64,000 bases of DNA. It comes from Verrucomicrobiota bacterium (GTDB lineage: Bacteria; Verrucomicrobiota; Verrucomicrobiia; Limisphaerales; CANJXF01). A program made the position numbers and the translations under genes. The notes below the pieces were generated by a model. The model saw only the letters and a program-made list of their open reading frames with translations. It did not search any database and was not told the DNA's origin. How positions within the stretch are numbered: the first letter of the stretch is position 1; every line of letters starts with the position of its first letter. The DNA is taken from assembly GCA_043775015.1 (NCBI GenBank), contig JAYVSV010000068.1, positions 731-64,730 of the forward strand. The letters run 5' to 3'. Positions 3 through 61,610 of this stretch are shown here, piece after piece.

Positions 3-815
3 AGTGAACGAGCCATTGTTCTCCACGCGCCGCTTTATGTGATGGGACAGGCGCGAGAACGCGCGGACGTCGTAGCTCCCGAAATCACCGAGGATAAAAA
101 TGCTCCGATGTTTTTGATTTCCACACGAACGGAAGAGCAGGTGAGCAGCGGTTTCGGTTGGGGCCAGGTCGGTTGGGGCGCGCTTGGTTTGGTGCTTTGT
201 GTTGCCGGGTTTTTCATCCTGGACCACCGGATGAATCTTGAACCGGAGATAGTTAAATACCTGATCGCGGGAGGAATTTATTTGGCGGCATGTGTCGTTG
301 GCTGGGTTTTGATGGTGTTCAACAGCCTGATCGATTTGCGGCAACGGGTTCGCCAAGGCTGGTCACAGGTCGATGTGCAATTGAAACGGCGTTACGACTT
401 GATTCCGAATCTCGTGCAGACGGTGCAAGGCTTGCGGGATTACGAGCGAAATCTCCAAACGGAAATGGCCGGGTTGCGCAGCCAGCTAGGTGCGACCCCG
501 CCGGGAAAACCGGGTGCCGATTATCAAGCGGTTGGGAAGACGATGCTGGCGGTGGTGGAGAAATACCCGGAGTTAAAGAGTCAGGATGCGTTCGTAAATT
601 TGCAGAAAAATCTCATCGATACGGAGCAACGAATCGCTTTGGCGCGCGGTTATTTCAATGAGATCGCCACGTTTTATAACACGCGATTGGAAGTTGTTCC
701 CGATCGATTTATTGCCGCACTCGTGGCGATGAAGCCGGAGCAGTTGATGTCCGCGAACGACTTCGAACGCGCACCGGTCGAAGTTGATTTTGCTTCGTCG
801 AATACTGGCGCGTAG
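3..815 (+). CDS. lemA: LemA family protein with an N-terminal extension (probably a GIDE-like domain); 5' end lies outside the window
   Basis: LemA motifs SQVDVQLKRRYDLIPNLV and EKYPELKS...TEQRIALARGYFN. The frame is open from base 3 (ERAIVLHAPLYVMGQARER...FLISTRTEEQV), followed by two TM segments. Confidence 0.85.
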   Translation, partial: SERAIVLHAPLYVMGQARERADVVAPEITEDKNAPMFLISTRTEEQVSSGFGWGQVGWGALGLVLCVAGFFILDHRMNLEPEIVKYLIAGGIYLAACVVGWVLMVFNSLIDLRQRVRQGWSQVDVQLKRRYDLIPNLVQTVQGLRDYERNLQTEMAGLRSQLGATPPGKPGADYQAVGKTMLAVVEKYPELKSQDAFVNLQKNLIDTEQRIALARGYFNEIATFYNTRLEVVPDRFIAALVAMKPEQLMSANDFERAPVEVDFASSNTGA

Positions 816-856
816 TTCTGCGGATAGCCCTCTCGCGAATCGCATCGCAATAATAA

Positions 857-3247
857 TCAATCACCGAGCGCGGTCTCAATTTTGCAGTCGTCGCGGTTGA
901 AAATCAGAGTGATCGCGCCGGAATCGCGGCAGAAAATCAACCGGGCTTTTTGTGCGCCCAAGCGTTCGCGCAATTTGCGGGAAGCGCGTTTCGTGGCCGG
1001 AAATTCTGAATCTGTGACAATTATTGTGGTCGGCTGAATGAGTTCCAGCAGCGCGTCGCAGAGCGGTTCTTTTTGTGCGGGAATTCCAGAAACCACAATG
1101 TCGGTCCGCAAGTTATCTTCGCGGTCCGTCAAGGCGTTTTGGCCGGGTCGTCCCAACGACGCTAAAAGGAGGACTGATTTGCCGAACACATGGCCGCGAA
1201 GAACGATGGCTTTGTCGTCCGCTTGCGCGAACTGATCTTCCGCTTGCGGATGCAACACGGCCCAGTCTCGAACATGGCTGCCGGTGGACACGGTTTCGAA
1301 ATCTTCGGGTTTTGTTTTTAGCTGAGTGAGGATCTCGCGATACGCCGCCGATTTCGATGCCAGCGGGCTGGTGAAAGTGTGCGTGATTGTGAAATTGGTT
1401 TTGATCGTTTCATACCCTCCGACGTGGCGCAAATCGCCATGGGTCAGTAGGACGTTGGAAATTCTATTCACTCCTTGCGCGTGGAGAAATGGCTTCAAAA
1501 TCAAATCTGCCGAATGACTATCTCCGCAGTCGATCAATAGATCGTTTTCGCGGCCGGGAGCATCAACGAAAATGGCGCTCCCACCGTTGAGCGGCAAAAT
1601 GGTCATCTTCACGGTCTGCGATTCCGTGCGCCAACCCCAAAGCGAAAAAAGCAACGCACCGAGAGAAATGGCGAGCGCAAAAATTCTTTTTCGCGGCAAC
1701 CGAAACCAGCCATTCAAAGTGACGAGCAGCAGTGCGTAATAAATCAGGCAGGCCGCGAGCGACGGAGCAGGGACGTAAAAATACGAGCCTGGCCGAGTGG
1801 CGAACCAATGGCTCAGCCCGGCCATGAGGTTCATGAAAAACCATCCGGCGTGGTTGAAAAGTTCCGCGGCAAACGGGAACCAAGTTGCGCAAAACAGACT
1901 GCCGATATTGCTCATCAACGCGAGGCTTGCCAACGGGACAATCACGAGATTGGCCAACAAACTTACCGGTGTGAAGAGATGAAAATAGTAGGCCACGAGC
2001 GGCAACGAACCCAGCCAGGCGGCCAATGAGGTGGCGAAGCAGGTGGTGAGGTAATTGAGCGGCAGATCAAGTCGCTTGCGCCACGTTGGACGTAATTCCG
2101 GCGGCAACAACGGATCGGATTTCAGCAAACGCTCGCGGTGCTTGAGGAAGATGGGCAGGAAAAGAGCGATGCTCAAAACGACGAAGAAAGAAAGTTGGAA
2201 GCTCGCTTGAAAAAGCTGCTGTGGATCCCAAATCAAAATGATGAAGGCCGCCGCCGCTAGAGAATTCAGCAAGTCTGTGGGTCGTCTGAGCGCCCAACCA
2301 CCGACGATGATTGTCATCATGACGGTGGAACGAATCGCTGATGGCTGCCAGCCAGTCGCGGCGGTGTAAAACCAGACCAGCGCAATCGCGATCACCCCGC
2401 TGAGACTCCGGGGGAGCTGCATCACGCGAAGCAGCTCGATGAGAATTCCTGAAATCAGCGCGATGTGTAATCCACTGATCGCGAAAACATGCATGGTTCC
2501 CGAACGCATGAACGGTTCGCTGACCTCGTCGGTGAGCGCGGTTTTCCAGCCGAGCGTCATTGCCCAAACCAGTCGTAGCGATTCGTCTTCAGCACCTAAA
2601 CCTTTCGATAAACAATTTTGTGCCCAATCAATGCAGCGATCTGCGAACGGAGCATTTTTAGACGCGCCAATCAGTTGCCAATCGTTGGTTGAGGCGACCG
2701 CGAGTTGAAAATAAATTCCCTGCCGCTTGAGGTAAGTTTGGTAATCAAACAACCCTGGAGCCAGTGGACTTCTTGGCGCTTGAATGACGCCGGTCACTTC
2801 TGTCTCTTGTCCGCCGTGAAATTCTGCGCTGACGATGCCTGGCGTGCTGATGATGACGGTGCCCACGGCGGGACGCCACGCGCCCGATTTTTGAATGTGA
2901 CTGACTTCGATCTGTGCGAGCGTGCGCCAGGATTGTTCCTCGTCGATTTCGAAAACGCGGTGAGTTGGCGCAGCATTGAGTGTTCCTCGCAAACGGACGT
3001 ATTCCGTGCCTTTCGTGAGTTGTTTTCGCAGGTCGTTTGGCGCAAGGGCTTCAGCGCGCCAGCCCAAATTAATCCAGCCCGCTAAAATAATTAATGGCCA
3101 AAGGATGAAATCGCGCCGCCAGACGAAAGCGCCGATGAGCAGCGCAAACGCCGAGGCGAACAGCCAGAGCAACGGCGCGTGAAAGTTGTCCCCCAGCAGC
3201 AGTCCACTGCCATAGAGCAACGCCACGATGACGAGTGGTCGTTTCAT
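857..3247 (-). CDS. comEC: ComEC/Rec2 DNA uptake competence protein
   Basis: SGTMHVFAISGLHI, PSAIRS and SFQLSF competence-domain motifs; C-terminal beta-lactamase-like domain (LIDCG, LTHGDLRHVGG). Confidence 0.93.
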   Translation of the reverse strand: MKRPLVIVALLYGSGLLLGDNFHAPLLWLFASAFALLIGAFVWRRDFILWPLIILAGWINLGWRAEALAPNDLRKQLTKGTEYVRLRGTLNAAPTHRVFEIDEEQSWRTLAQIEVSHIQKSGAWRPAVGTVIISTPGIVSAEFHGGQETEVTGVIQAPRSPLAPGLFDYQTYLKRQGIYFQLAVASTNDWQLIGASKNAPFADRCIDWAQNCLSKGLGAEDESLRLVWAMTLGWKTALTDEVSEPFMRSGTMHVFAISGLHIALISGILIELLRVMQLPRSLSGVIAIALVWFYTAATGWQPSAIRSTVMMTIIVGGWALRRPTDLLNSLAAAAFIILIWDPQQLFQASFQLSFFVVLSIALFLPIFLKHRERLLKSDPLLPPELRPTWRKRLDLPLNYLTTCFATSLAAWLGSLPLVAYYFHLFTPVSLLANLVIVPLASLALMSNIGSLFCATWFPFAAELFNHAGWFFMNLMAGLSHWFATRPGSYFYVPAPSLAACLIYYALLLVTLNGWFRLPRKRIFALAISLGALLFSLWGWRTESQTVKMTILPLNGGSAIFVDAPGRENDLLIDCGDSHSADLILKPFLHAQGVNRISNVLLTHGDLRHVGGYETIKTNFTITHTFTSPLASKSAAYREILTQLKTKPEDFETVSTGSHVRDWAVLHPQAEDQFAQADDKAIVLRGHVFGKSVLLLASLGRPGQNALTDREDNLRTDIVVSGIPAQKEPLCDALLELIQPTTIIVTDSEFPATKRASRKLRERLGAQKARLIFCRDSGAITLIFNRDDCKIETALGD

Positions 3248-14955: not shown

Positions 14956-15876
14956 TTACTTCGGCATCTTCAAATCGGCCAAAGCTCGGCCTTCGCGTTT
15001 GCGAATGGTCGCTTCAACTTTCGGAACGTACATTTGCGTTTCGGCAGGTAGGCGGTGCGCAATTTCGTCGAAGGTGCGCGCTTTCTGTTTTCGCAGGAGT
15101 TCAGCGACGCGACCTTCGCCCGCGTTGTAAGCGGCCAAAGTCAGTCGCCAATCACCGAATCGATTATGCAACTGCCGCAAATAATGAGCGGCCGCTCGGG
15201 CGTTTTTATCGGGTTGCAAACGTTCGTCGCGCAAGAATCCAACCGAAAGATCCAGGCTGCGCGCCGTCGCCGGCATAAGTTGAAACAAACCAGCCGCGCC
15301 AGCCGGACTCCGCGCCTTCGCGTCGAAGGACGACTCCACTTCGGCCAGCCAAACCAACTCGGGCGGCACTCGTTCCGCGAGGAAAATTTTCTTCAATTGC
15401 GCAACTTGCTGAAACGCCAGCGACGGCATCGGACGTTGTTCGATCACTTCAATCCAAGCTTTGCGTTCGACCTTTGGCAACGGTTGCACGAGGCGGGTTG
15501 TGTTGGTGGAAACGGGGTTCGCGTCTTTGCGTAATTTTTCTGCGACCTCAAAATAATCGAGACGCGATTTCAGCCACACGGCGTAAGGCTGGGTTTCCTC
15601 GAACTGCTGGAGGAGGGGAAGGATTTGCGCCGCCGTCTCGCGCAATGAGCCAAGGTCATAAACGTAAGTTCCTTGAAATTGCCGCTCCAACTCCACGAGA
15701 AATTTTCGCGCTCGTTCTGCATCAAGGCCGAGAGCATCCAGCACCGAGTCATCCACGTTCTCGCGCAAAAATTGATTCGCCGAATCAATCACCTCGGCTG
15801 GTACAATCAATTGATCCTGGGCAAGGGCGCTGCCCGCAAAAAACATCGCGCCCAGAAAAATCCAAACGAATTTCAC
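14956..15876 (-). CDS. Lytic transglycosylase (SLT domain)
   Basis: LAEVESSF, SPAGAAGLFQLMPATA and LAAYNAGEG motifs; signal peptide. Confidence 0.92.
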   Translation of the reverse strand: MKFVWIFLGAMFFAGSALAQDQLIVPAEVIDSANQFLRENVDDSVLDALGLDAERARKFLVELERQFQGTYVYDLGSLRETAAQILPLLQQFEETQPYAVWLKSRLDYFEVAEKLRKDANPVSTNTTRLVQPLPKVERKAWIEVIEQRPMPSLAFQQVAQLKKIFLAERVPPELVWLAEVESSFDAKARSPAGAAGLFQLMPATARSLDLSVGFLRDERLQPDKNARAAAHYLRQLHNRFGDWRLTLAAYNAGEGRVAELLRKQKARTFDEIAHRLPAETQMYVPKVEATIRKREGRALADLKMPK

Positions 15877-30806: not shown

Positions 30807-32218
30807 GCGGTTGCGATGTGACTCAGCTTTTGTGAAATGTGATACTCGAAAAGGTGCGTGGAAATTTTCTCCGCTGCGTGGTCGCCCGAGAGGATTGAAT
30901 CGCCGAGCGCAATTCCATCGCGATAATGCCCCGCCATAAAAAAACCGTGCGCCTTCGCTTCGATGTCGTCCATGAGCGCCTTCATTTTTCCGTATCCAAC
31001 CTGATATTGCGGAATTGCTTTTGGATAAACAAAAAAATGTTCAAAGACCGGTTCGCCACTCACGCCCAGTAATTTTTTTAAATCTTCCAAAACCACTTTG
31101 CGCAACCGGCTCTTTTCAGCGAGGGCCAATTCAGGATTTCGCGAACCACCGACGTAGCATGTGATCGTCACATGATCCTTCGGTGCGCGATTCGGAAAGA
31201 GCGCCGAGGAAAAAATCACCCCCAAAATATTGAACTTCTCCACCTCGGGAATCAGCGCGCCAAATCCCTGGCAGGCGTGTTTCACATCCGCGCGGCGAAA
31301 CCCGAGCACGATGCTGGCCACGGGCGGGTATTCGATTTTCTCCAGCGGACTGAGATCGAATTTGTGCGCAGTTTCCAATTTCACATCGGCCAGTTTGTAA
31401 ATCGGCGAGGTGAACAAAACTGCTTCGTGTTCACGCTGCTGCTCTTGACCGTTGGAACGATAGCTCACTGTCCAGTCACCGGTTGTCTGCGTGATCGCGG
31501 TGACGGGCGATTGCAATTCAACAGCGTCGCCCAATTTGGTGCGGAGTTCCTCGGTCAAAACCTGCAAACCTTCGTCAAATGAAAACTTTGGCGCATTTTG
31601 TTTTGAAACTTCGCCGCTGCGTTGGCGTTCACACGCGCCGAGAAATTGGCCGAGAATGAGCGAACCGTATTTCTGTTCCAGCGCATGTAGCTTTGGAAAA
31701 GCGTACTTCACGGAAAGCTTGGCTGGGTTTCCTGCATAAACGCCGGCCACAAACGGGTTGATGGCGTAATCCAAAAACTCGCGGCCGAGTCGGCGCAAAA
31801 CAAATTGCTCCAGGCTTTCCTCGCAACACGCGGGAGCGCGACGTATGAAAGGCTCGGCGCAAAGTCGAAGTTTTGCGCGAACGGAAAAAAGCGGCGTCTT
31901 GAAAAAACCAATTTTTGAATCCGCCATGGCAATCGGTTTTCCACCGCGAACAATGAATCGTGCAGCGGCACGTTCGTCGGTGTAGCGTTTCCGATTTTCC
32001 AGACCCAGATCGCGCACCAATTCGGTAATTTTTGGAGATGTCTCGAGTAGTGTGTTCGGTCCGCACTCGGCCAGAAAACCATTTTCCCGCACGGTTTGAA
32101 TAACGCCACCCACGCGATGGCTCGCTTCGTAAACCGTCACCGGAACATTTTTTTGCCGAAGCCGAAACGCGGCCGTCAGCCCCGTGATGCCGCCTCCGAT
32201 GATTGCCACGCTCTTCAT
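30803..32218 (-). CDS. hemY: HemY-type protoporphyrinogen oxidase (FAD)
   Basis: IIGGGITGLTAA, GGVIQT, ECGPNT, GVYAG, GFGALIP and AIPQY motifs. Confidence 0.93.
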   Translation of the reverse strand: MKSVAIIGGGITGLTAAFRLRQKNVPVTVYEASHRVGGVIQTVRENGFLAECGPNTLLETSPKITELVRDLGLENRKRYTDERAAARFIVRGGKPIAMADSKIGFFKTPLFSVRAKLRLCAEPFIRRAPACCEESLEQFVLRRLGREFLDYAINPFVAGVYAGNPAKLSVKYAFPKLHALEQKYGSLILGQFLGACERQRSGEVSKQNAPKFSFDEGLQVLTEELRTKLGDAVELQSPVTAITQTTGDWTVSYRSNGQEQQREHEAVLFTSPIYKLADVKLETAHKFDLSPLEKIEYPPVASIVLGFRRADVKHACQGFGALIPEVEKFNILGVIFSSALFPNRAPKDHVTITCYVGGSRNPELALAEKSRLRKVVLEDLKKLLGVSGEPVFEHFFVYPKAIPQYQVGYGKMKALMDDIEAKAHGFFMAGHYRDGIALGDSILSGDHAAEKISTHLFEYHISQKLSHIATA

Positions 32219-42100: not shown

Positions 42101-44293
42101 ATGGAAAATACCACGCACTTGTTTTTGGCGACGCGTTTCAATTGCAATAAATGTCACGACCATCCGTTCGAGCGCTGGACCCAGGATCAATATTATCATC
42201 TGAGCGCCTACTTCGCCCGAGTCACGTTGAAAGAAGACCCAGCCAGCGACGGGAAAAAAATCGGCGGTTCCGCAGTCGAAGGTGCCAAGCCGCTTTATGA
42301 AATCGTCGATGACACGCCCGAAGGAGAAGTGAAGCACGACCGCACTGGAAAAGTTTCGCCACCGTTATTTCCGTTCCCGGCGAAGACCGAGTCGAAAGAA
42401 AAAACCACGCGTCGCGAGGAACTCGCTGCCTGGATCAGCACGCCAGAGAATCGTTACTTCGCCTCCAGCTATGCGAATCGCCTCTGGGGTTATCTGACCG
42501 GCGCGGGCATCATCGAACCGCTGGACGATACTCGCGCCGGAAATCCCCCGCGCAATCCGGAGCTGCTGGATTATTTTACCCGCCAATTCATCGAGAACAA
42601 ATTCAACACGCGCCACATGGTGCAAATGATCTGCAAATCGCGCACGTATCAACTCACCATCCGGCCCACCAAGTGGAATGAGGATGACAAAGTGAATTAT
42701 TCTCATGCGATTGCGCGCCGTCTTCCGGCGGAAACTCTTTTCGACGCCGTGTTCAGGGTAACCGGCAGCACTCTGCAAATTCCCGGGGCAAAACCAGGGC
42801 AGCGCGCCACGCAATTAGCCGACTCCGCCATGGATGTGGGCAGCGGGTTGCTCGCCACCCTCGGACGTCCTGTGCGCGAGAGCGCCTGTGAATGTGAGCG
42901 CAGCAGCAGCATGGGTCTCGGCTCCGTCATGGCGTTGCTCAGCGGGTCAACTATTTCCGGCGCAATCAATGAGCCAACCAATTCACTGGCGAAATTGGTC
43001 GAGTCGGAAAAGAACGATCAGAAATTAATCAACGAAGTTTTCCTGCGCGTCGTCAACCGGCCTGCCACTGAAGTGGAAACCAAGAGCGTTTTAGCTCTGC
43101 TGAGTTCGGTTGAATATGACAATTCGAGCATCACGAACGAACTCGGCAAATTGGAATCGAAGTTAGCCCCGGAAATTTCCGAACTCAATCGCAAGCGCGA
43201 CGAATCGGTTGCGCTCTCCAAGACCAACCTAGTCACCTACGATGAGATGACGAAAAGCCTCAGGGCTGAATTGGAAAAGCGGCGCAACTCCGAACTTGCT
43301 CTCACGCAACGCGAATTGAAGGAATACGAAAAACTCCTTCCCGCCCAGGCCGCATTCTGGGAAACAAAAAATAATCCAGCGGATACCAAAACCACCTGGT
43401 TGCTGATCGATCCCAAAAAAATTTCGGCCACCGGTAAGAATAAACTGGCCCGGCAATCCGACGGCTCCATCACTTCCTCGGGCGGGAAAAGTCCGGCGGA
43501 ATTCGTCCTCCTGGCCGAATCTCCGCAGACGAATATCACCGGTATTATGCTCGAAGTTTTGCCTGAAGAAATCCTTCCGAAATTCGGACCTGGGCGCTCG
43601 CCAGACGGAAACTTTGTCCTGAGCGAATTGGAATTGAATTGGGCCACAGGCACGAACAAACCCGATGTCGCCGCGAAATTTTCCGACGCGCGCGCTGATT
43701 TTTCTCAGACCGATTTCTCCGCATCTCAGGCTATCGATGGAAAAATTGAGTCCGGTAAAAATGGTTGGGCAATCGGTGGCGCACCCGGCATTCAGCGCCA
43801 CACCGCGACCTTCAAATTGGAAAAACCGATTGCCAGCACGAACGGTGTGACGTTGCGGCTGGTGTTGAAACAAAATTTCGGAGATCAATTTTTGGTGGGC
43901 AAGTTTCGAGTTTACCTGACCGCTGGCGCAGAACCTTTGGATTTCGGTTTTCCAGAGGGAGTTGTGCAAGCCGCGCGCGCACCCGCCGGACAGCGCCAGC
44001 CCGAACAGGCATCAGCCATCCTCGATTTCTACCGCTATTCAGATGCTGAATTCTGGAAGCGCAAACAGGCTGCCGTCAACGCCGTCGCGCCTTTGCCGCT
44101 CGACCCCAAATTGGCTGAGTTGCAGAAAGCCCTGGCCAAAGCGGAAGAGCCGGTTCGCCTCGACCCCTACCTGGTGCAACTGCGGGTGGATGCGCAAGCC
44201 AGTGGCAAGCAAAGCGAAAACAAACGACTCACGGTCGTGCAGGATTTGACCTGGGCGTTAATCAATAGCCCCGGATTTTTATTCAACCATTAA
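39107..44293 (+). CDS. Large planctomycete cytochrome c / WD40 / Ig-like / DUF1549 / DUF1553 protein
   Basis: CQGCH, WD40-type repeats, CSAGTCHG, FIRRVYLDLTGLPP, CNKCHDHPFERW and LTWALINSPGFLFNH. Alternative start ATG 39233. Confidence 0.9.
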   Translation: MNFFGFNLPAPGAYSLIKLRFLPSRQCCLFLPIFGLGLIYVPMQSGAAETKEQKPATKVSYYGEIRPIFQANCQGCHQPAKSKGGFVMTDFKTLLAGGDSEGAAIVPKTPEKSSILKMITPQDGEVRMPKGKTPLTDSEVALIRSWIQQGADDDTPKDAKRHYDAEHPPLYSRAPVITSLDYSPDGKWLAVAGFHEVLLYEKDGATLAARLIGLSERVQSLAFSPDGQSLAVIGGNPARLGEVQIWDVAKRKLTLSMPISYDTLYGASWSSDSKMIAFGCPDNTVRAIEAATGKQIMQMGSHSDWPMTTVFSRKGDHVISGSRDMSVKLTEVATQRFVDNVTSITPGGLKGGVMAMAAHPKFEEIVTAGSDGLPKAYRIFREVKREIGDDAQFIADLFPMTGRVFSIRFSADGKRIACGSGLDRAGELVVCSYDYTNEVPKNLRDIMGKVPATRKPEEQKQLADYKTQGIREIARVSIPHSEIYSVAFSPDGNKIAAGGSDGMVRLFNATNGAVIKEFLSVPVTKGTMTSARPAWAPKADKNIETTSNSESLPEGAKVAALEVQPAQIKFNSLNGYNQLLVTARLESGDTVDVTRLVKFSMKSPLAEISARGILRPLKNGTTKLVVTLAGKTVETPVEISGLGKGYQADFIRDVNPVLAQLGCSAGTCHGAKEGKNGFKLSLRGYDPETDLRALTDDLASRRVNLASPDDSLMLLKAVAEVPHEGGRRTTVDSKYYQILRQWIANGANLDLKSAKVTSIAVFPHDPVVQKIGARQQMRVVAHYGDGTARDVTSEAFIESGNADVATPETGGLITTLRRGEAPVLARYEGNYAATTLTVMGDRSGFVWQEPPTWGKIDELVAAKWKRMKIEPSELCTDLEFIRRVYLDLTGLPPSPAEIRAFVDDSRETRSKRDEVVDRLVGSSDYVDFWSNKWADLLQCNSKFLGAEGAESFRAWIRKEVENNTPYDQFAREILTASGSTKTNPAASYWKIVRTPTEAMENTTHLFLATRFNCNKCHDHPFERWTQDQYYHLSAYFARVTLKEDPASDGKKIGGSAVEGAKPLYEIVDDTPEGEVKHDRTGKVSPPLFPFPAKTESKEKTTRREELAAWISTPENRYFASSYANRLWGYLTGAGIIEPLDDTRAGNPPRNPELLDYFTRQFIENKFNTRHMVQMICKSRTYQLTIRPTKWNEDDKVNYSHAIARRLPAETLFDAVFRVTGSTLQIPGAKPGQRATQLADSAMDVGSGLLATLGRPVRESACECERSSSMGLGSVMALLSGSTISGAINEPTNSLAKLVESEKNDQKLINEVFLRVVNRPATEVETKSVLALLSSVEYDNSSITNELGKLESKLAPEISELNRKRDESVALSKTNLVTYDEMTKSLRAELEKRRNSELALTQRELKEYEKLLPAQAAFWETKNNPADTKTTWLLIDPKKISATGKNKLARQSDGSITSSGGKSPAEFVLLAESPQTNITGIMLEVLPEEILPKFGPGRSPDGNFVLSELELNWATGTNKPDVAAKFSDARADFSQTDFSASQAIDGKIESGKNGWAIGGAPGIQRHTATFKLEKPIASTNGVTLRLVLKQNFGDQFLVGKFRVYLTAGAEPLDFGFPEGVVQAARAPAGQRQPEQASAILDFYRYSDAEFWKRKQAAVNAVAPLPLDPKLAELQKALAKAEEPVRLDPYLVQLRVDAQASGKQSENKRLTVVQDLTWALINSPGFLFNH

Positions 44294-44336
44294 CCCATTT
44301 GCCGAACGAAAAAAGCCATAGCCCAAGGAAAATAAT

Positions 44337-45809
44337 ATGATCAAAATACCCGGCGGAACATGTAGCGACCTTTGCGATCCTCATTTGAAAATGACGCGGC
44401 GCGATCTTTTGCGGGTCGGCGGCGCCAGCATGCTTGGGCTTTCGCTCGGATCCATGTTCAAATTGCAAGCGCTCGCCGGCGAACCGGGCAAGCACGCCGG
44501 CGGCCCGGGTTGGGGCACGGCCAAAAACGTGGTAATGATTTATTTGCAAGGTGGGCCGAGCCATCTTGATTTGTGGGATCCGAAAGAAAATGCGCCCGAC
44601 AATATCCGCAGTTCCTTCAAATCGATTTCCACGAAAATTCCCGGGATAAATTTTACCGAGGTTTTGCCCGAGCTGGCAAAGGTGAATGACAAATTCACCA
44701 TGATCCGTTCAATGAGCTACACGCCGAATGGTTTGTTCAATCACACAGCGGCGATTTACCAAATCATGACCGGCTACACGACCGACAAGGTCAGCCCGTC
44801 CGGTCAACTCGAGCCGCCCGATCCAAAAGATTTTCCCAACTTCGGCTCGCAAATTGTTCGGTTGCGTCCCGTGACTGATCCGATGCTTCCGTTCGTGATG
44901 TTGCCTCGGCCACTCCAGGAATCCAACGTTGTGGGCAAGGGCGGCACGGCTGGTTTTCTCGGAAAGGCGTTTGATCCCTACACCTTGTTCCCCGACGGCG
45001 ACGACATGGACATGGCTAAAATGGATCGCATTCGCGTGGACGATTTGAAGTTGCCACCGGAAGTTTTTGCCCTGCGTCTCCAACGTCGCGCCCAATTGCG
45101 CGAAGCCGTCGAAGCCGCGATGCCGGATGTCGAGAAAGCGGTTGAGAATTACAACCTCGACGACTACTACAAGCGCGCTCTGAACCTGATTGTCTCGGGC
45201 CGTGCCCGCAACGCATTCGACCTCACCCAGGAGAATGAGAAGACACGCGACAGGTATGGACGAAATACTTTTGGGCAAAGTTGTCTGCTCGCCCGGCGGT
45301 TGATCGAAGCCGGCACGCGTGTCGTGGAAGTCATCTGGCCGAAGGTCGCCAACTCGGACAACCATTCGTGGGATCACCATTCCGATTTGACCAAGCGCAT
45401 GGGGACTCAATCCGGTCCGATGCTCGATCGCGGTTTGGCTGCATTCATCGCGGATATGGACGAACGTGGCTTGCTCAAGGACACGTTGGTCGTGGCCATT
45501 GGAGAATTTGGACGCAGCCCGCAAAAAGGGGTAAGCACTTCGGGAAATTCCAATACTGCGGACGGTCGCGATCATTGGCCGTATTGCTACACCTCGGTTA
45601 TTGCTGGCGCCGGAATCAAACGCGGTTACGTCCATGGCAAGTCCGACAAAACCGGCAGCAGCCCGGCCGAAGACCCGGTTCATCCGACCGAACTACTCGC
45701 GACGATGTATCACGCATTTGGCATCGACCCGGAGACCATCGTTTACAATCACCTGAAGCAACCGCGCGAATTGGTGAAGGCCAAGGCAGTGACCAAACTG
45801 TTCGCGTGA
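44337..45809 (+). CDS. DUF1501 domain protein
   Basis: [36 protein letters not shown] and GEFGRSP...GRDHWP motifs. Confidence 0.93.
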
Positions 45810-45980
45810 TTTGATGAGCCGCAGGATAGTTCACGGGCTGGGATATCCTAAAGCACGGGAATTAGAAGTAAACCGTTCCATCGGAGGATCCAGCGAGGTG
45901 GTAAAAGCGCTCATCCACCAGGCCAAAAACCTCTTGCTCAAACCCGGCCGCCACTCTAAAAATAGCCCATGCACACCAAA

Positions 45981-46038
45981 ACTAGGCCAACTGTCTGCCA
46001 CTAGGCCAAACCCACGTCTGGCCTATTACATGTTAGAT
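45981..46038 (+). promoter_or_regulatory. attI-like recombination site (candidate)
   Basis: Direct repeats actaggccaa (45981-45990 and 46000-46009) upstream of the core GTTAGAT (46032-46038). No attC-like hairpin precedes the core. Confidence 0.4.
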
Positions 46039-46690
46039 GCCTCCGCGCTCACAAGCTATGTCGGTATTTATCAAGGTCATTCGCAGGGTGGTTCGATCAA
46101 TGACCACTTTGCCGGATACCCAAGGCTGGTTGCGTTGCCTATGGGTGTTCTTGGCCTATGTTGTGATTGCCTTCGCGCTGGGGCAGGCGACCGGCTCGCT
46201 TCGTGTGGAAACATACAGTGGGTCTCCTGATAGGCTCGTCCGGTTTGCGGCTATTGCTTTCCTCGTGCCTTGCTTATCTGAGGAGCTGCTTTTTCGCGCT
46301 GCATTTCTCTACGATCCTAAAATAGCTGCCTCGGCCCGGTATCGACTGGGCCGAGCTGTAATCGCTTTGGTACTTTTTGTCCTTTGGCATCCACTAAATG
46401 GTCTGTTTCTGAAGACTGATGCCCATGAGGTGTTCCTAGACCCCGGCTTCCTTATGTTAGCCACTTTGCTTGGCTGCTGTTCTAGTGTGGCATACCTCAC
46501 AACCGGCTCTATCTGGCCTTCTACGCTGATGCATTGGATCAGTCTGGTTGGTTGGAAGGCGTTTTTCGGCGGACGTATTTTTGACTGAGACGATGAAAGA
46601 AAGGACGGCATCTAACCAGCAGCGAACGTCGGCGGGCCGTCGCGGTTGCAATCGGCGCGTCTCGTGGCCGCCGTCGCTGTGCTTGGTTCG
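46033..46690 (+). mobile_element. Integron-type gene cassette (CPBP protease + attC); no integrase in the window
   Basis: G/TTAGATGCC at the left end is the exact reverse complement of GGCATCTAAC (46607-46616) after the ORF. A single ORF is followed by an attC-like hairpin. Confidence 0.75.
46058..46588 (+). CDS. CPBP (CAAX/Abi) family intramembrane glutamic endopeptidase
   Basis: SEELLFRA, FVLWHPLN and GSIWPSTLMHW motifs; multiple TM segments. Confidence 0.88.
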   Translation: MSVFIKVIRRVVRSMTTLPDTQGWLRCLWVFLAYVVIAFALGQATGSLRVETYSGSPDRLVRFAAIAFLVPCLSEELLFRAAFLYDPKIAASARYRLGRAVIALVLFVLWHPLNGLFLKTDAHEVFLDPGFLMLATLLGCCSSVAYLTTGSIWPSTLMHWISLVGWKAFFGGRIFD

Positions 46691-46696
46691 TTCATT
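46610..46696 (+). mobile_element. attC site, degenerate
   Basis: R'' ATCTAAC; stem cagcga/tcgctg, cggcg/cgccg, ggcc/ggcc; ends in GTT (46690-46692). The left arm looks about 6 nt short and R' (GTTCATT) is non-consensus. Confidence 0.7.
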
Positions 46697-46697
46697 A

Positions 46698-49600
46698 ATG
46701 AAACTTTTGAAACTTCCCCTCACTTCGTGCCTGCTGGCGACGGCGTTCTTTGTGACGGCCAGTCGCGCGGCGGATTTTCCGGCGGTTTACAACAGTGAAA
46801 AGGACACGAACGCCGTGCCGCCCACGCCTGAGCAATCGCTCGCAATGTTGAAACTCCCGCCCGGCTTCAAAGCCACTCTGTTCGCCGCCGAACCGGAGGT
46901 GCGGAATCCGATCTCAATGGCTTGGGATGCGCGCGGGCGGCTGTGGATCGCGGAGAATTACACCTATGCTGAGCGCTCGCTGAAATTTGATCTGCACCTG
47001 CGCGATCGCATCCTGATCTTCGAGGACAAAGATGGCGACGGACATTTCGATTCCCGGAAAGTTTTTACCGACGAAGTACAAAAGCTCACGAGCGTGGAGA
47101 TCGGCCACGGCGGGGTGTGGGCGATGTGTCCACCACAGTTGCTTTTCTTTCCCGACAAGAATGGTGACGACTTACCTGATGGCGCGCCGGAAGTAGTGCT
47201 CGATGGATTCACCGTCCCGGAAAATAATTATCACAATTTCGCCAACGGCCTTCATTGGGGGCCGGACGGCTGGCTCTACGGTCGCTGTGGTGCGTCAGCC
47301 CCGGGAAAAATCGGCGTCCCCGGCACTCCGACGAACGAACGCTTGCCGATTCCTGGAGGCATTTGGCGTTATCATCCGAAAAAGAAAATCGTCGAAGTGC
47401 TCACTTCAGGCCCGATGAATTCCTGGGGCCACGATTGGAATAAATACGGCGAAGCTTTTGCCATCAACACGGTCAATGGCCACTTATGGCACATCATTCC
47501 AGGCACACATTATCTCGTCGGTCACACCATCGATCCCAACCCGCGCGCCTACCAATTGATGGACATGCACGCCGACCATTGGCACTTCGATACCGCCAAG
47601 GGTTGGGGAAAATCGCGTGATGGCGTGTACGATTCTTTGGGTGGCGGCCACGCGCACATTGGAGCAATGATCTATAGCGGCGACAATTGGCCCGCCGAAT
47701 ATCGTGGCCATTTGTTCACGTTGAATTTGTTTGGCCGCCGGGCAAACCAGGAAATCCTCGAACGCTCCGGCTCCGGTTACGTGGGCAAACACGGCAACGA
47801 TTCTTTCTTCTTTGGCGACGGATGGTTTCGCGGATTGGAACTCGGTTACGGCCCGGACGGTGGCGTCTTCGTGCTCGACTGGAGCGACACGGGCGAATGC
47901 CACGAGAACACCGGTGTGCATCGCACTTCGGGACGAATCTACAAAATAACTTATGGCGATGCGAAACCGTCTCCGGTCGGCGATCTCGCGAAATTAACGG
48001 TGGTTGAATTGGTCAAGCTACAACTCCACGAGAACGAATGGTTCGTGCGCAAGGCACGTTTGCAACTGGCCGAACGTGCGCCGACGGGTCGCGAATTCGA
48101 AACGGCGAAAGTTCAACTTCTCGAAATGTTCGCGCGTGAAACAAATTCCGTCATGCAACTGCGTGCCATGTGGTCGCTCAACAACATCGGTGGAGCCGAC
48201 GAAACATTTTTGCTCAAACAATTGCAGCATCGAGACGAGTCTGTTCGCACCTGGGCGATTCGTTTGCTCAGTGATCTGTGGCCGTTGGACACCGTGATGT
48301 CCTCACGACCAGCCCACAGAACGGAGGCATCGGTCAGCCAAACGCTGCAAGTGTTTTCCCGAGTGGCGAAGTCTGATTCTTCAGGACTGGTCCGCCTCGC
48401 GCTGGCCACCTTGCTGCAACGACTGCCCGTAACGCAACGCCCTGAGCTTGCCGCGTCGTTGCTCGCCCATGCTGAGGATGGCGACGATCCTAATCTACCG
48501 TTGATGATCTGGTATGGCCTCATTCCACTCGGGGATTTCTCGCCCACCCCGTTGTCGGCGCTCGGAGCAAATTGCCAAATACCGCTTACGCGCAAATTGA
48601 TCGCGCGCCGATTGGGTGAGGACATTGAGAAAAATCCCGTCGCGTTGAATGAATTATTGAAATCAACAGCAACCAAATCAGAAGCATTTCAAATCGACAT
48701 TCTCGCCGGGTTGTCCGAGGCACTGCGCGGCTGGCGCAAGGCGCCAAAGCCTCCGTCGTGGGATGCGTTGCAAATAAGTTTGTCCAGTTCGCCGAACCCC
48801 GGTTTGCGTGACCGTGTGCGCGATTTAAGCGTGGTCTTTGGCGATGGGCGGGCGCTTGATGAAGTGAAGCGCATCGCCCTAGATCGAAAGGCTGATTTAA
48901 AATTTCGCCGCGCTGCGTTGCAAACCTTGATTGAAAACAAGCCGTCCGACTTGCGAATCATTTGCGAACAATTGCTCGAAGTAAAATTCCTCAACTCCAC
49001 CGCCGTCCGTGGACTGGCCCTGTTCGACGATCCGGCCATTGGTGAAAAAATCGCGAAAAGCTATCAGCAATTTCATCCATCCGAACGGGGTGCGGTCATG
49101 GACACACTGGTATCGCGCCCGACGTTTGCGCGGCCTTTGCTGGATGAAATGTACGCAAGTCGAATTCCCAGAACCGACATGACGCCCTTTCATGCGCGGC
49201 AGGTTCGCAGCCTGAATGACCCGGCGCTCACCCAACAACTGGCCAAGGTCTGGGGAGAACTGCGCGACAGCCCGGCAGAGAAAAAGAAATCCATCGCGGA
49301 GATGAAAACAAAGTTATCTTCCACCGCGCTCGCCTCCGCCGACAAAAGCCAGGGCCGCGCGGTATTCAACATAGCTTGTGCGGTCTGCCATACACTTTAC
49401 GGCCAGGGCGGAAGGGTCGGCCCGGACCTGACCGGCTCGGGTCGCGATAATCTGGATTACTTGCTCGATAACATCATTGATCCCAGTGCAGTAGTGAACG
49501 CGGACTTCGGCATGTCGGTAGTCGGACTCAAGGATGGCCGAACGTTGAATGGGATGGTTTCAGAAAAAACCGAGCGCACCATCACGTTGAAAACCATGAC

Positions 49601-49754
49601 CGAAACCGTAACGTTGAATCGCGACGAACTGGCGAGCGTTCAGGAGTCTTCTCTTTCACTCATGCCGGAAGGATTGCTCGAAGCGCTCAACGAAACGCAG
49701 GTTCGTGACCTCATTGCCTACCTCATGAATCGCACGCAGGTTCCACAAAATTAA
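46698..49754 (+). CDS. PVC-type heme-binding CxxCH protein (putative membrane-bound dehydrogenase)
   Basis: FAAEPEVRNPISMAWDARGRLW, NGLHWGPDGWLY, HEAT-like repeats and C-terminal CAVCH...GPDLTG...DPSAVV. Confidence 0.92.
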   Translation: MKLLKLPLTSCLLATAFFVTASRAADFPAVYNSEKDTNAVPPTPEQSLAMLKLPPGFKATLFAAEPEVRNPISMAWDARGRLWIAENYTYAERSLKFDLHLRDRILIFEDKDGDGHFDSRKVFTDEVQKLTSVEIGHGGVWAMCPPQLLFFPDKNGDDLPDGAPEVVLDGFTVPENNYHNFANGLHWGPDGWLYGRCGASAPGKIGVPGTPTNERLPIPGGIWRYHPKKKIVEVLTSGPMNSWGHDWNKYGEAFAINTVNGHLWHIIPGTHYLVGHTIDPNPRAYQLMDMHADHWHFDTAKGWGKSRDGVYDSLGGGHAHIGAMIYSGDNWPAEYRGHLFTLNLFGRRANQEILERSGSGYVGKHGNDSFFFGDGWFRGLELGYGPDGGVFVLDWSDTGECHENTGVHRTSGRIYKITYGDAKPSPVGDLAKLTVVELVKLQLHENEWFVRKARLQLAERAPTGREFETAKVQLLEMFARETNSVMQLRAMWSLNNIGGADETFLLKQLQHRDESVRTWAIRLLSDLWPLDTVMSSRPAHRTEASVSQTLQVFSRVAKSDSSGLVRLALATLLQRLPVTQRPELAASLLAHAEDGDDPNLPLMIWYGLIPLGDFSPTPLSALGANCQIPLTRKLIARRLGEDIEKNPVALNELLKSTATKSEAFQIDILAGLSEALRGWRKAPKPPSWDALQISLSSSPNPGLRDRVRDLSVVFGDGRALDEVKRIALDRKADLKFRRAALQTLIENKPSDLRIICEQLLEVKFLNSTAVRGLALFDDPAIGEKIAKSYQQFHPSERGAVMDTLVSRPTFARPLLDEMYASRIPRTDMTPFHARQVRSLNDPALTQQLAKVWGELRDSPAEKKKSIAEMKTKLSSTALASADKSQGRAVFNIACAVCHTLYGQGGRVGPDLTGSGRDNLDYLLDNIIDPSAVVNADFGMSVVGLKDGRTLNGMVSEKTERTITLKTMTETVTLNRDELASVQESSLSLMPEGLLEALNETQVRDLIAYLMNRTQVPQN

Positions 49755-60092: not shown

Positions 60093-61610
60093 TTAGGTTA
60101 ATTGATATTCCGGAGTGGACATGATCAGCCGAATGGTGTGGCGAATATCCTGGTCATCCAATTCGCCGCGACTGTCGAGAAAATCGCGCAACGTTTGCGC
60201 CTGTTTGGGTTTTAGTTTCGCTTGCAGAAAACGTTTTTCCAGCGCGGGAATGACCAATTCTTTTTGACGCCGTTCTTCCACACTTAAAATTTTGCTGACG
60301 TTAACCACCGGCATCTTCTGCGCCATGCGGTTCGCGACTTCTTCAATTTTCCGCATCCGCTGATTGGACGAGTCCGCAGCCAGGCTTCCCTCAGCCAGCA
60401 CCAACATGGCCGCCTCGTTGTAGCGGTTCAAAAGATTATTGGTGGTGATCCAGCTCAACCCGCCGTCCCATCCTTTCACGTTGGGCGGCATCAACAATTC
60501 CTGGCCGATATTTTTGAGCAACTGCGTGCAAACCAGCGGCGCGGGCAGATCGCGCTCCAATTGCCGCACGCTGCCAACCAGCCATTGCACCGGGCTTTTT
60601 ACCTGCGTGCGAATCACCGAGTCGGCGTAAAATTCCTTGGAACGAAACATCGTGCGCAAGACCGGCTTAAAATTATTTCCCGCGCCACGGAAAACAGAAG
60701 CCAGCGCTTCGATCAACTCCGGCGATGGATTGTCACTGGCGAAAAACTTCCAAATTTTTTCGGTGATAAATCGAGCGGACTGCGGTTGTTCGACAATCAA
60801 TTTCAGAACGTCGAGACCGGTGTAATTTCCCGCTTTACCAAAGACGGTTTTCTCGCTGGCATCGTGCATCGCCTCGCGAAATTCGTATTTCTCCTGGGAG
60901 CGATTGATTGTCCAACCAGTCATGGCGCGAGCGGCTTCGGTCACATCTTTCTCGGTGTAATGGCCCTCGCCCAGAGTGAACAACTCCATCACTTCGCGCG
61001 CGAAATTTTCGTTCGGATGCTGTTTGCGACTTTGCGCCTGATCGAGCCAGATGAGCATCGCCGGATCTTTGGCGACGGCGTAAATTAATTGCAGCCAATT
61101 GCCGGAACCGAGCGTGCGAAACGTCTGGTTTTGCAGCCACATGAAATAAGCATCGCGAACTTTCTGAGCGCTCGTGGCGAAATGCCCGTGCCAAAAAAGC
61201 GTGAGTTTTTCCTGGAGCGGTCGCGGGCCATTCGCCATTCGAGCAAGCCACCAACCGCGCAATTCCAAAATATGAAGTTGCTGGGTGCGTTGTTCATCGC
61301 GCTGCATTTCGCGACGTTTTTCTTCCATCGTGCGGCGCTCTTCTGGCGTGAGCGATTCCTTGCGCGATTGTTCCTGCATTTTTCGGAAGGCGAGAAATTT
61401 ATCGACCCGGCCTGGATCCGGATTGGCCCAGCCGAGTTCGGGTGCTGAGTCAGGAATTTTTTCGTATTCGACAAAAGAATCGACCGCTTTATCCAGCCCA
61501 AGTTTTACCAGTTTTTCAATTTCAGCAGGTGAACCGCCGAAGCCTGCGCGGTTCAACAAATGAGCCGCTGCCGAGTAATTCCACTGCGCAGATGACAAAG
61601 ATTCGAGCAT
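60093..61610 (-). CDS. DUF1800 domain protein
   Basis: AHLLNRAGFG, EKLTLFWHGHFAT, PNENFAREVMELFTLG and PPNVKGWDGG motifs. Confidence 0.94.
   Translation of the reverse strand: MLESLSSAQWNYSAAAHLLNRAGFGGSPAEIEKLVKLGLDKAVDSFVEYEKIPDSAPELGWANPDPGRVDKFLAFRKMQEQSRKESLTPEERRTMEEKRREMQRDEQRTQQLHILELRGWWLARMANGPRPLQEKLTLFWHGHFATSAQKVRDAYFMWLQNQTFRTLGSGNWLQLIYAVAKDPAMLIWLDQAQSRKQHPNENFAREVMELFTLGEGHYTEKDVTEAARAMTGWTINRSQEKYEFREAMHDASEKTVFGKAGNYTGLDVLKLIVEQPQSARFITEKIWKFFASDNPSPELIEALASVFRGAGNNFKPVLRTMFRSKEFYADSVIRTQVKSPVQWLVGSVRQLERDLPAPLVCTQLLKNIGQELLMPPNVKGWDGGLSWITTNNLLNRYNEAAMLVLAEGSLAADSSNQRMRKIEEVANRMAQKMPVVNVSKILSVEERRQKELVIPALEKRFLQAKLKPKQAQTLRDFLDSRGELDDQDIRHTIRLIMSTPEYQLT

Follow-up and report, generated by a model that had tools for sequence, protein, structure and literature searches.

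A lone gene and hairpin between co-oriented neighbours

We analysed a stretch of 64,000 nucleotides (hereafter the window) on the 65-kb contig JAYVSV010000068.1 (C68) of a Verrucomicrobiota bacterium, in which a gene for a CPBP/Rce1-like (Abi) intramembrane protease of 183 amino acids (46037..46588; this and all window features below are on the plus strand) is followed by an imperfect hairpin. The two very probably form a genuine integron gene cassette standing alone, comprising positions 46033-46690 with one promoterless gene and an 83-nucleotide attC recombination site. A PSCyt/PSD1-DUF1501 operon and a DUF7133/cytochrome c gene (46698..49754) flank the cassette, and all of the neighbouring genes are co-oriented. 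The assembly is a metagenome-assembled genome (MAG) of 206 contigs, 93% complete and with 3% contamination, and it provides sequence within contigs, designated by C numbers below, rather than linkage from one contig to another.

The left end of the unit reads atG/TTAGATGCC, and the ten nucleotides that begin with this G, GTTAGATGCC (46032-46041), fit GTTRRRY and represent the R' half of the cassette, G|TTAGATGCC. As the sequence-only reading of this DNA had claimed, they are the exact reverse complement of GGCATCTAAC (46607-46616), with pairing that stops at 10 nucleotides both by eye and by script, and a single open reading frame (ORF) lies between the two repeat arms. The right arm is the extended R'' box, whose core ATCTAAC (46610-46616, fitting RYYYAAC) pairs with GTTAGAT (46032-46038), the end complementarity that characterizes a cassette. 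We delimit the cassette at 658 nucleotides (46033..46690), beginning with the first T past the left crossover and ending with the G of R'. Its left end is set by the onset of DNA homology to two metagenomic copies, loci L106 and L107; the right crossover is ambiguous by four nucleotides, with homology favouring G46690|T, where TC|GTT aligns with sister and related attC sites, and covariance modelling favouring G46686|T as an alternative right end.

The imperfect hairpin that had been reported 3' of the right arm is G+C-rich and part of an attC site at 46610..46692. Its R'' box is followed by a 5' spacer CAG (46617-46619), an L'' arm made up of CAGCGA, a four-nucleotide bulge ACGT (46626-46629) and CGGCGG (46620..46635), a central loop (46636..46667) containing CGCGGTTGCAATCGGCGCG, which BLAST and alignment also place in copies on contigs C172 and C102, an L' arm of CCGCCG and TCGCTG (46668..46679), and a 3' spacer TGCTTGGTTC (46680-46689) leading to the R' triplet GTT (46690-46692), so that the last segment covers 46680..46692. 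The sequence 3' of the hairpin, GGTTCGTTCATT, contains GTT not only at 46690-46692, as noted previously, but also at 46686-46688, and the next gene begins with its ATG at 46698. The 3' end of the site, TGCTTGGTTC|GTT, aligns with AGCTGGGTC|GT on C172, AGCTTGGGGTC|GTT on C29 and AGCTTTGGTC|GTTAGGC in related arrays. In its integrated state R' reads GTTCATT (or GTTCGTT) rather than GTTRRRY, because the insertion partner would not have been another attC, and it pairs with R'' at AAC/GTT only.

The length of 83 nucleotides falls within the range of attC sites (about 57-141 nucleotides), and the 5' spacer is unusually short. Canonical attC sites carry extrahelical bases on the L'' side, and folds with DNA parameters of both the integrated and the re-joined forms place the four unpaired bases of the window site on that side. 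When the ends are re-joined as in an excised circle, the R box extends to 10 bp and the fold becomes more stable, at -29.3 kcal/mol for the top strand and -26.0 kcal/mol for the bottom strand, the strand that the sequence-only reading had proposed to fold. That reading had also suggested that the left arm had lost about 6 nucleotides and that the cassette may thereby be fixed in place. A gap of six positions between R'' and L'' is indeed present relative to the consensus of both of our covariance models, but the sister attC on C172 has the identical gap, so the short arm is a subfamily trait and does not show fixation; the C29 site has the full spacer.

Evidence for the cassette unit

The 10-nucleotide inverted repeat is not significant by itself, because the window holds 194 exact inverted repeats of this length with arms 100-1500 nucleotides apart (about 85 expected), and the case rests on context. 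Genome-wide, 10-nucleotide inverted-repeat pairs ending in RYYYAAC occur at chance level (about 20 against about 16 expected, both strands counted). Only one of the 194 window repeats, that of the cassette, has a left arm fitting GTTRRRY, and the repeat gains its significance because its right arm coincides exactly with the 5' end of the sole match in the window to the broader of two independent attC models.

The first of these models, R1, is a covariance model made from 16 attC repeats in the arrays of two related MAGs (L026 and L027), where repeats of 90-109 nucleotides with R''/R' boxes and covarying stems lie upstream of integrase genes. Applied to 80 foreign loci around intI genes, R1 recovered 121 sites, only two of which were not on the expected strand, and for this reason it works as an attC detector across Verrucomicrobia and Gammaproteobacteria. 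The broader model, R2, was built from those 121 sites; neither model holds any sequence of this genome, and both were run over the whole 64 kb with filters off. Positions 46610-46692 (plus strand) were the top match of R1, at full length, with 15.2 bits and E=0.055 (next best 15.0 bits), and the sole match of R2 below E=1, with 19.6 bits and E=0.0067 (next best 11.6 bits). The R2 match, also of full length, has the predicted place, strand and extent, and across 586 kb of homologous loci from other organisms R2 gave no match at E<=1. Elsewhere in the window, a short perfect hairpin at 60453-60486 (GCTCAACCCGCCG...CGTTGGGC) scored 15.0 bits with R1 by way of 71 deleted model positions and 9.2 bits with R2, and is probably unrelated to integrons.

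Further units of the same construction were detected in this genome (G000). Contigs C29, C41, C163 and C23 were screened with an nhmmer profile and scripts, and the R1 and R2 scores cover the window, C172 and the fetched loci. BLAST with the window hairpin returned related copies on C172 and C102. On the minus strand of C172, a first unit runs from atG/TTAGGCGGC through a 150-residue ORF to GCCGCCTAAC, complementary to its start GTTAGGCGGC, and on into a hairpin homologous to that of the window, which R2 scores at 20.4 bits (E=0.0033); a second unit begins /TAGGCCACGA and carries a 65-residue membrane ORF and then TCGTGGCCTAAC. The C29 unit has complementary ends GTTAGGCGATTT and AAATCGCCTAAC around a 130-residue ORF, a VapBC pair downstream, and an attC of the same sequence family as that of the window (CAGCGAAC...GTCGCTGAGCTTGGGGTC|GTTAGGCG). 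C41 holds a unit with ends GTTAGGCCGC...GCGGCCTAAC, likewise complementary, together with a second attC, and C163 a canonical attC 212 nucleotides from the contig start. The rule that the first bases of a unit are the reverse complement of R'' therefore recurs in at least four other units, each with sequences of its own (twice on C172, and on C29 and C41), which is the covariation expected of cassettes. The search for paralogous attC sites that had been suggested as a check thus bore out the original proposal, with the C172 and C29 sites belonging to the window's own attC family.

These sister loci differ in their surroundings. The two C172 units (205-1010, minus strand; L011) stand beside a divergent rpiB-like gene without an integrase; the attC of the second is interrupted after CTAACACAGCGTAAC by another repeat and the contig end, and the left junction, GAATACTATG|TTAGG, resembles the attI junctions of relatives. 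C29 (1-1400) opens with an outward-facing stretch of 23 codons for an integrase-like N-terminus (MTLGDALNRVREVMRRKHLALS), followed by G|TTAGGCGATTT, the 130-residue ORF, an attC of about 200 nucleotides with a run of CACACGCG repeats, the VapB/VapC-like pair and then housekeeping genes. On C41 (52410-53390), an attI and the region preceding it are homologous to those of the L043 integron (score 64, z=13) with the integrase gene gone. Next come two cassettes together with their attC sites, and beyond these an ISL3-like transposase gene; the locus looks like a decayed integron. An attI-like flank on C23 (29650-30300; z=10.7 to L027 and the top match of an attI profile, E=1e-4), without an integrase nearby, is joined to a single cassette for a 155-residue lipoprotein between GTTAGGCATC and GATGCCTAAC, after which the sequence looks, by eye, like a degenerate attC. 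The C102 copy (31949-32074, minus strand; L012 5950-6075) is a remnant 93% identical over 43 nucleotides to the window attC loop, located between a RibD-C-like gene and a trigger factor gene, and has neither an R'' box nor a cassette gene.

For the CPBP protein, 33 relatives were found in the database, most of them on contigs of 1-3 kb, and two bear on the boundary. In L106 (73% amino acid identity) the gene again begins at GTTAGATGCC, with unrelated DNA upstream, and in L107 (75%) the attC of another cassette precedes the gene, with the junction G|TAGATGCC. A multiple alignment of the window with these two copies shows background identity before 46032 and 16-19 of 20 positions identical from the crossover on, with the onset of homology at 46032-46034; the right boundary is less sharp since attC interiors differ. 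The jump in identity at the crossover fixes the left boundary and places the unit in three different contexts. After the stop codon of L106, the sequence resembles, by eye, an attC belonging to the C29 family but carrying a mutated R'', and the models give no match there. The metagenome contig L105 (1500-5700) has a 72% CPBP homologue next to several consecutive small ORFs without an assigned function, including one with a type VI secretion system Tdi1-type immunity domain; GTTAGGCGAC occurs 50 nucleotides before the called CPBP start and GGCCTAAC after the gene, and this locus may be a decayed array.

The distribution of the gene is patchy. It is missing from seven of eight genomes of the genus, and the genus relative G008 has a 59% CPBP homologue with an attC-like site before it (R2 16.8 bits). 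In total, 80 metagenomic loci preserve the upstream PSD1-DUF1501 pair (73-92% amino acid identity); homology ends at the DUF1501 stop codon (45809) in all 80, and neither a CPBP nor a DUF7133 gene lies downstream of DUF1501 in any of them. In G001, G007 and G008, the gene that lies upstream of the DUF7133 orthologue is a different one. Comparison with relatives, another check that had been proposed, thus revealed that the CPBP gene is not vertically conserved at this position. Since the independent attC model, the sister units in the same genome, the homology boundary at G|TT and the non-vertical distribution all agree, they support the integrated cassette that the sequence-only reading had put forward.

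That reading had also reported no integrase nearby, which holds for the contig: TIGR02249 has no match on the 65-kb C68. It does not hold for the genome: the one match that exceeds the cut-off of 265 bits is an integron integrase encoded on C30, which scores 397 bits when the genome is scanned and 415.6 bits as a translated protein. The C30 integrase contains the IntI-specific extra segment (21 residues) and the C-terminal catalytic region, and the closest integrases, at 88%, 70% and 68% identity, come from Limisphaerales and other Verrucomicrobiota MAGs. Contig C106 (L014 1-200) shares the first 98 nucleotides of the integrase gene and then diverges into a stop or truncated version, apparently a second truncated copy or a strain variant.

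Target site and rival explanations

The left flank up to the crossover G (45963..46032) is either a degenerate attI-type site or ordinary genomic DNA. It contains two copies of the direct repeat ACTAGGCCAA (45981..45990 and 45999..46008, the second beginning 34 nucleotides before the crossover), which resemble the (A/G)ATAG(G/A)CC of relatives' attI, and an inverted copy of the TAGGCCA core, TGGCCTA (46019..46025), followed by TTACATG|TT. The attI regions of relatives, taken from the integrase start to the first cassette, share (A/G)ATAG(G/A)CC-type repeats 27-42 nucleotides before the crossover, with comparable motifs in L043, L066, L041, L050, L039, L034 and L031, and also a junction such as CATTACAATG|TTAGG (L043). 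The window junction, ATTACA-TG|TTAG, resembles CATTACAATG|TTAG in L043 and CAATACAATG|TTAG in C41. The alignment between the flank and the L043 attI is collinear (score 30, z=4.6, 1 of 500 shuffles, the best of 19 comparisons), a weak similarity; Smith-Waterman alignment of the flank with a first set of attI regions was not significant, the DNA upstream of 45960 has no similarity, and no intI adjoins the flank. C41 and C23, at the z values given above, are clear attI sites with cassettes and without an integrase.

Judged from these alignments and motifs, the proposition that the target was a degenerate attI-type site left without its integrase is about evenly balanced. We tentatively suggest a wider reading, in which the lone cassette at a degenerate attI is one of at least four to five integrase-less loci with an attI and one or two cassettes (C68, C41, C23, C172 and perhaps C29), of at least three attI types, and in which these loci, scattered over one chromosome, may be dispersed capture sites served in trans by the remaining integrase or else the remains of independently decayed integrons. 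If the attI-like flank is real, chromosomes may keep several integrase-less capture sites that current tools do not annotate.

The closest rival accepts the cassette and differs in the target only: the integrase would have inserted the cassette just upstream of the DUF7133 gene at an attG, an ordinary site in the genome with the consensus GWT, and the attI-like features would be coincidental. We consider this quite possible, if short of an even chance. Insertion at GWT sites is documented, as are thousands of lone cassettes, or single attC sites lacking integron integrases (SALINs) (bioRxiv 10.1101/2022.09.11.507474); in addition, the attI profile misses the window flank, about 2-3% of all GTTAG sites genome-wide reach an equal score with the attI panel, and no integrase remnant lies upstream. 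What insertion at an ordinary site leaves to coincidence is the 10-nucleotide direct repeat and inverted TAGGCC core within 52 nucleotides of the crossover, the collinear alignment with the L043 attI, the junction ATTACA(A)TG|TTAG common to the window, L043 and C41, and the two integrase-less loci with an attI and cassettes in the same genome.

We regard it as very unlikely that there is no cassette at all, such that the CPBP gene would be a normal gene of the chromosome, the hairpin would serve as a terminator or regulatory stem, and the repeat would have arisen by chance. The abundance of 10-nucleotide inverted repeats in the window, a hairpin folding energy that is unexceptional against shuffles (z = -1.4 to -2.1) and a base composition close to that of the genome (53.8% against 53.2% GC) would all fit such an explanation, but the sole R2 match of the window falls exactly here, sister units keep their end complementarity with other sequences, homology to other copies begins at the crossover, and the gene is patchily distributed. 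The hairpin also has no T-run, a terminator scan found none at this position, and an Rfam scan of 44000-48000 returned no family. Equally hard to credit, and in our view exceedingly improbable, is that a copy of a small non-integron repeat, such as a repetitive extragenic palindrome or a miniature inverted-repeat transposable element, landed behind the gene by chance. The loop core CGGTTGCAATCG.CGCG does occur at three places in a genome rich in other short repeats at contig ends; yet three copies are all there are, the C172 copy itself lies within a cassette unit with R''/R' complementarity, the conserved sequences on either side of the hairpin are attC R and L boxes also found in arrays beside intI, and neither terminal inverted repeats nor target duplications are present.

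Several observations weigh against our preferred account, in which a genuine cassette was inserted here, possibly at a degenerate attI. With regard to the cassette, the attC scores are modest (19.6 bits with R2, against 17-116 bits for array sites with R1), the E-values of both models are rough because calibration was quick, and an R''-L'' spacer six positions under consensus makes attC activity uncertain. No empty insertion site was found among the genus relatives or the 80 DUF1501 loci, and we infer the insertion. The C30 integrase gene is cut off by the contig end and lacks about its first 9 codons, contains an in-frame insert of about 20 residues (HLTPTLSPPSEGAEREKAW; L013, around 15350-15440) from a palindromic CT/GA-rich stretch, and sits on a separate piece of a MAG with the 3% contamination given above. 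With regard to the attI, the flank ranks only 24th-39th among the 1387 GTTAG sites of the genome (top 2-3%), and a profile hidden Markov model of relatives' attI did not recover the window flank, though it found C23 and C41. A candidate integrase remnant in 45810-45960 (minus-strand ORF MERFTSNSRALGYPSP) was rejected, having no DNA similarity to the 5' ends of related intI genes (z=-0.08).

Insertion, cargo and relation to known cassette loci

In the established integron mechanism, the integrase would recombine the folded bottom strand of the attC of a circular cassette with a double-stranded target at G|TT, and replication would resolve the product, placing TTAGATGCC at the left end and R''-L''-L'-G at the right. 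For the window, the junction in the circular cassette would read ...GCTTGGTTCG|TTAGATGCC... and the empty site ...CCTATTACATG|TTCATTAATGAAAC..., and the putative C30 integrase could act on the lone cassette site in trans. Excision would need recombination between the left junction and the window attC. Because excision of genome-inserted cassettes has been reported (bioRxiv 10.1101/2022.09.11.507474), the suggestion that this one is fixed in place is not established.

The ORF had been described as promoterless-looking, in agreement with a scan for sigma-70-like promoters that found none. The CPBP gene is likely transcribed by read-through from upstream that continues through the cassette into the DUF7133 gene, because it has no promoter, the genes are co-oriented, its start codon lies 4 nucleotides inside the cassette and the next ATG lies 7 nucleotides beyond it. 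As the ATG of the DUF7133 gene is 7 nucleotides past the right crossover, that gene must be transcribed through the cassette, and an insertion this close to the start of a 3-kb gene must have rewired its transcription.

The start of the CPBP gene itself differs from the one first proposed, 26 nucleotides into the unit at ATG 46058. Homologues instead share a start at ATG 46037, within the R' box (TTAGATG); this start codon is conserved in four homologues, among them L106, L107 and L010. L106 and L107 have no ATG at the position of 46058, and L106 has Leu at the Met of 46100 in the alignment. With a start codon within the R' box, the ribosome-binding context is therefore set by the DNA upstream of the insertion point.

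The assignment of the cargo to the CPBP family was borne out by PF02517 (49.6 bits against a gathering cut-off of 22.4), and the translation contains EELLFR and FVLWH, corresponding to EExxxR and FxxxH, as well as the third His. Like other members of this family of Abi or type II CAAX prenyl endopeptidases, the cargo is a small polytopic membrane protein. The third motif of the family consists of His followed four residues later by Asn or Asp; the cargo has the His but lacks the usual Asn/Asp, and the cassette carries no partner gene for a bacteriocin, toxin or substrate. A possible role in phage defence, raised by the sequence-only reading, gained no support, as the protein had no match in the anti-phage defence library or in NCBIfam. 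Exact-sequence look-ups of the CPBP protein (from two starts) and of the DUF1501 protein returned no database record. The protease adds to the recurrent cassette genes of unknown role.

A lone cassette of this sort is a SALIN, an already-known kind of element; one count over RefSeq genomes gave about 3400, and experiments have shown that the integrase drives insertion of cassettes at GWT sites of the genome (bioRxiv 10.1101/2022.09.11.507474). The present cassette adds a clean new case from Verrucomicrobiota, and the evidence for its boundary is unusually good. It resembles known SALINs in having one ORF and one attC, with no second attC match in 64 kb and no integron integrase on C68, in its G|TT junctions, and in a co-oriented neighbour able to supply transcription. 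It differs in its host, a Verrucomicrobiota MAG, in the several other small integrase-less cassette loci of that genome, and in the attI-like repeats of its left flank, unlike the attG sites of the same study (bioRxiv 10.1101/2022.09.11.507474), which it describes as not resembling attI. Stray cassettes such as this one show that genes carried by integrons can move out of the array and end up as ordinary genes of the chromosome, here in a little-studied phylum; the less ordinary aspect is the set of small integrase-less loci with an attI and cassettes in one genome.

attC-site clusters that have no integron integrase (CALINs) are cassettes or attC sites without an adjacent integrase, which are thought to arise by integrase loss or rearrangement and are likewise a familiar kind of locus (Cury et al. 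2016, PMC4889954; IntegronFinder 2, PMC9024848). The sister loci C41, C172 and C29 fit this class of decayed integrons, whereas the window has one attC and a CALIN needs at least two. Retention of a recognizable attI beside the cassettes, clear in C41 and C23 and weak in the window, is not mentioned in the portions of these two papers that were consulted.

The window attC can also be set against the canonical attC sites (59-base elements) of the verrucomicrobial arrays L026, L027, L033 and L034. It shares with them an R'' of the form RYYYAAC, an L''/L' stem with unpaired bases on its L'' side, a homologous 3' spacer with the C|GTT end, and a length within the usual range; it differs in a spacer six positions shorter, in an R' of GTTCATT/GTTCGTT where the next DNA is not a cassette, and in a far lower score. 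A G+C-rich repeat (...GGCGGGCGTCTCGCCGCCCGGAAAG...) and other short repeats were observed at many contig ends of this assembly (for example C172 1-120, C163 1-100 and C106 380-420), and these appear to break the assembly, including within the second C172 attC.

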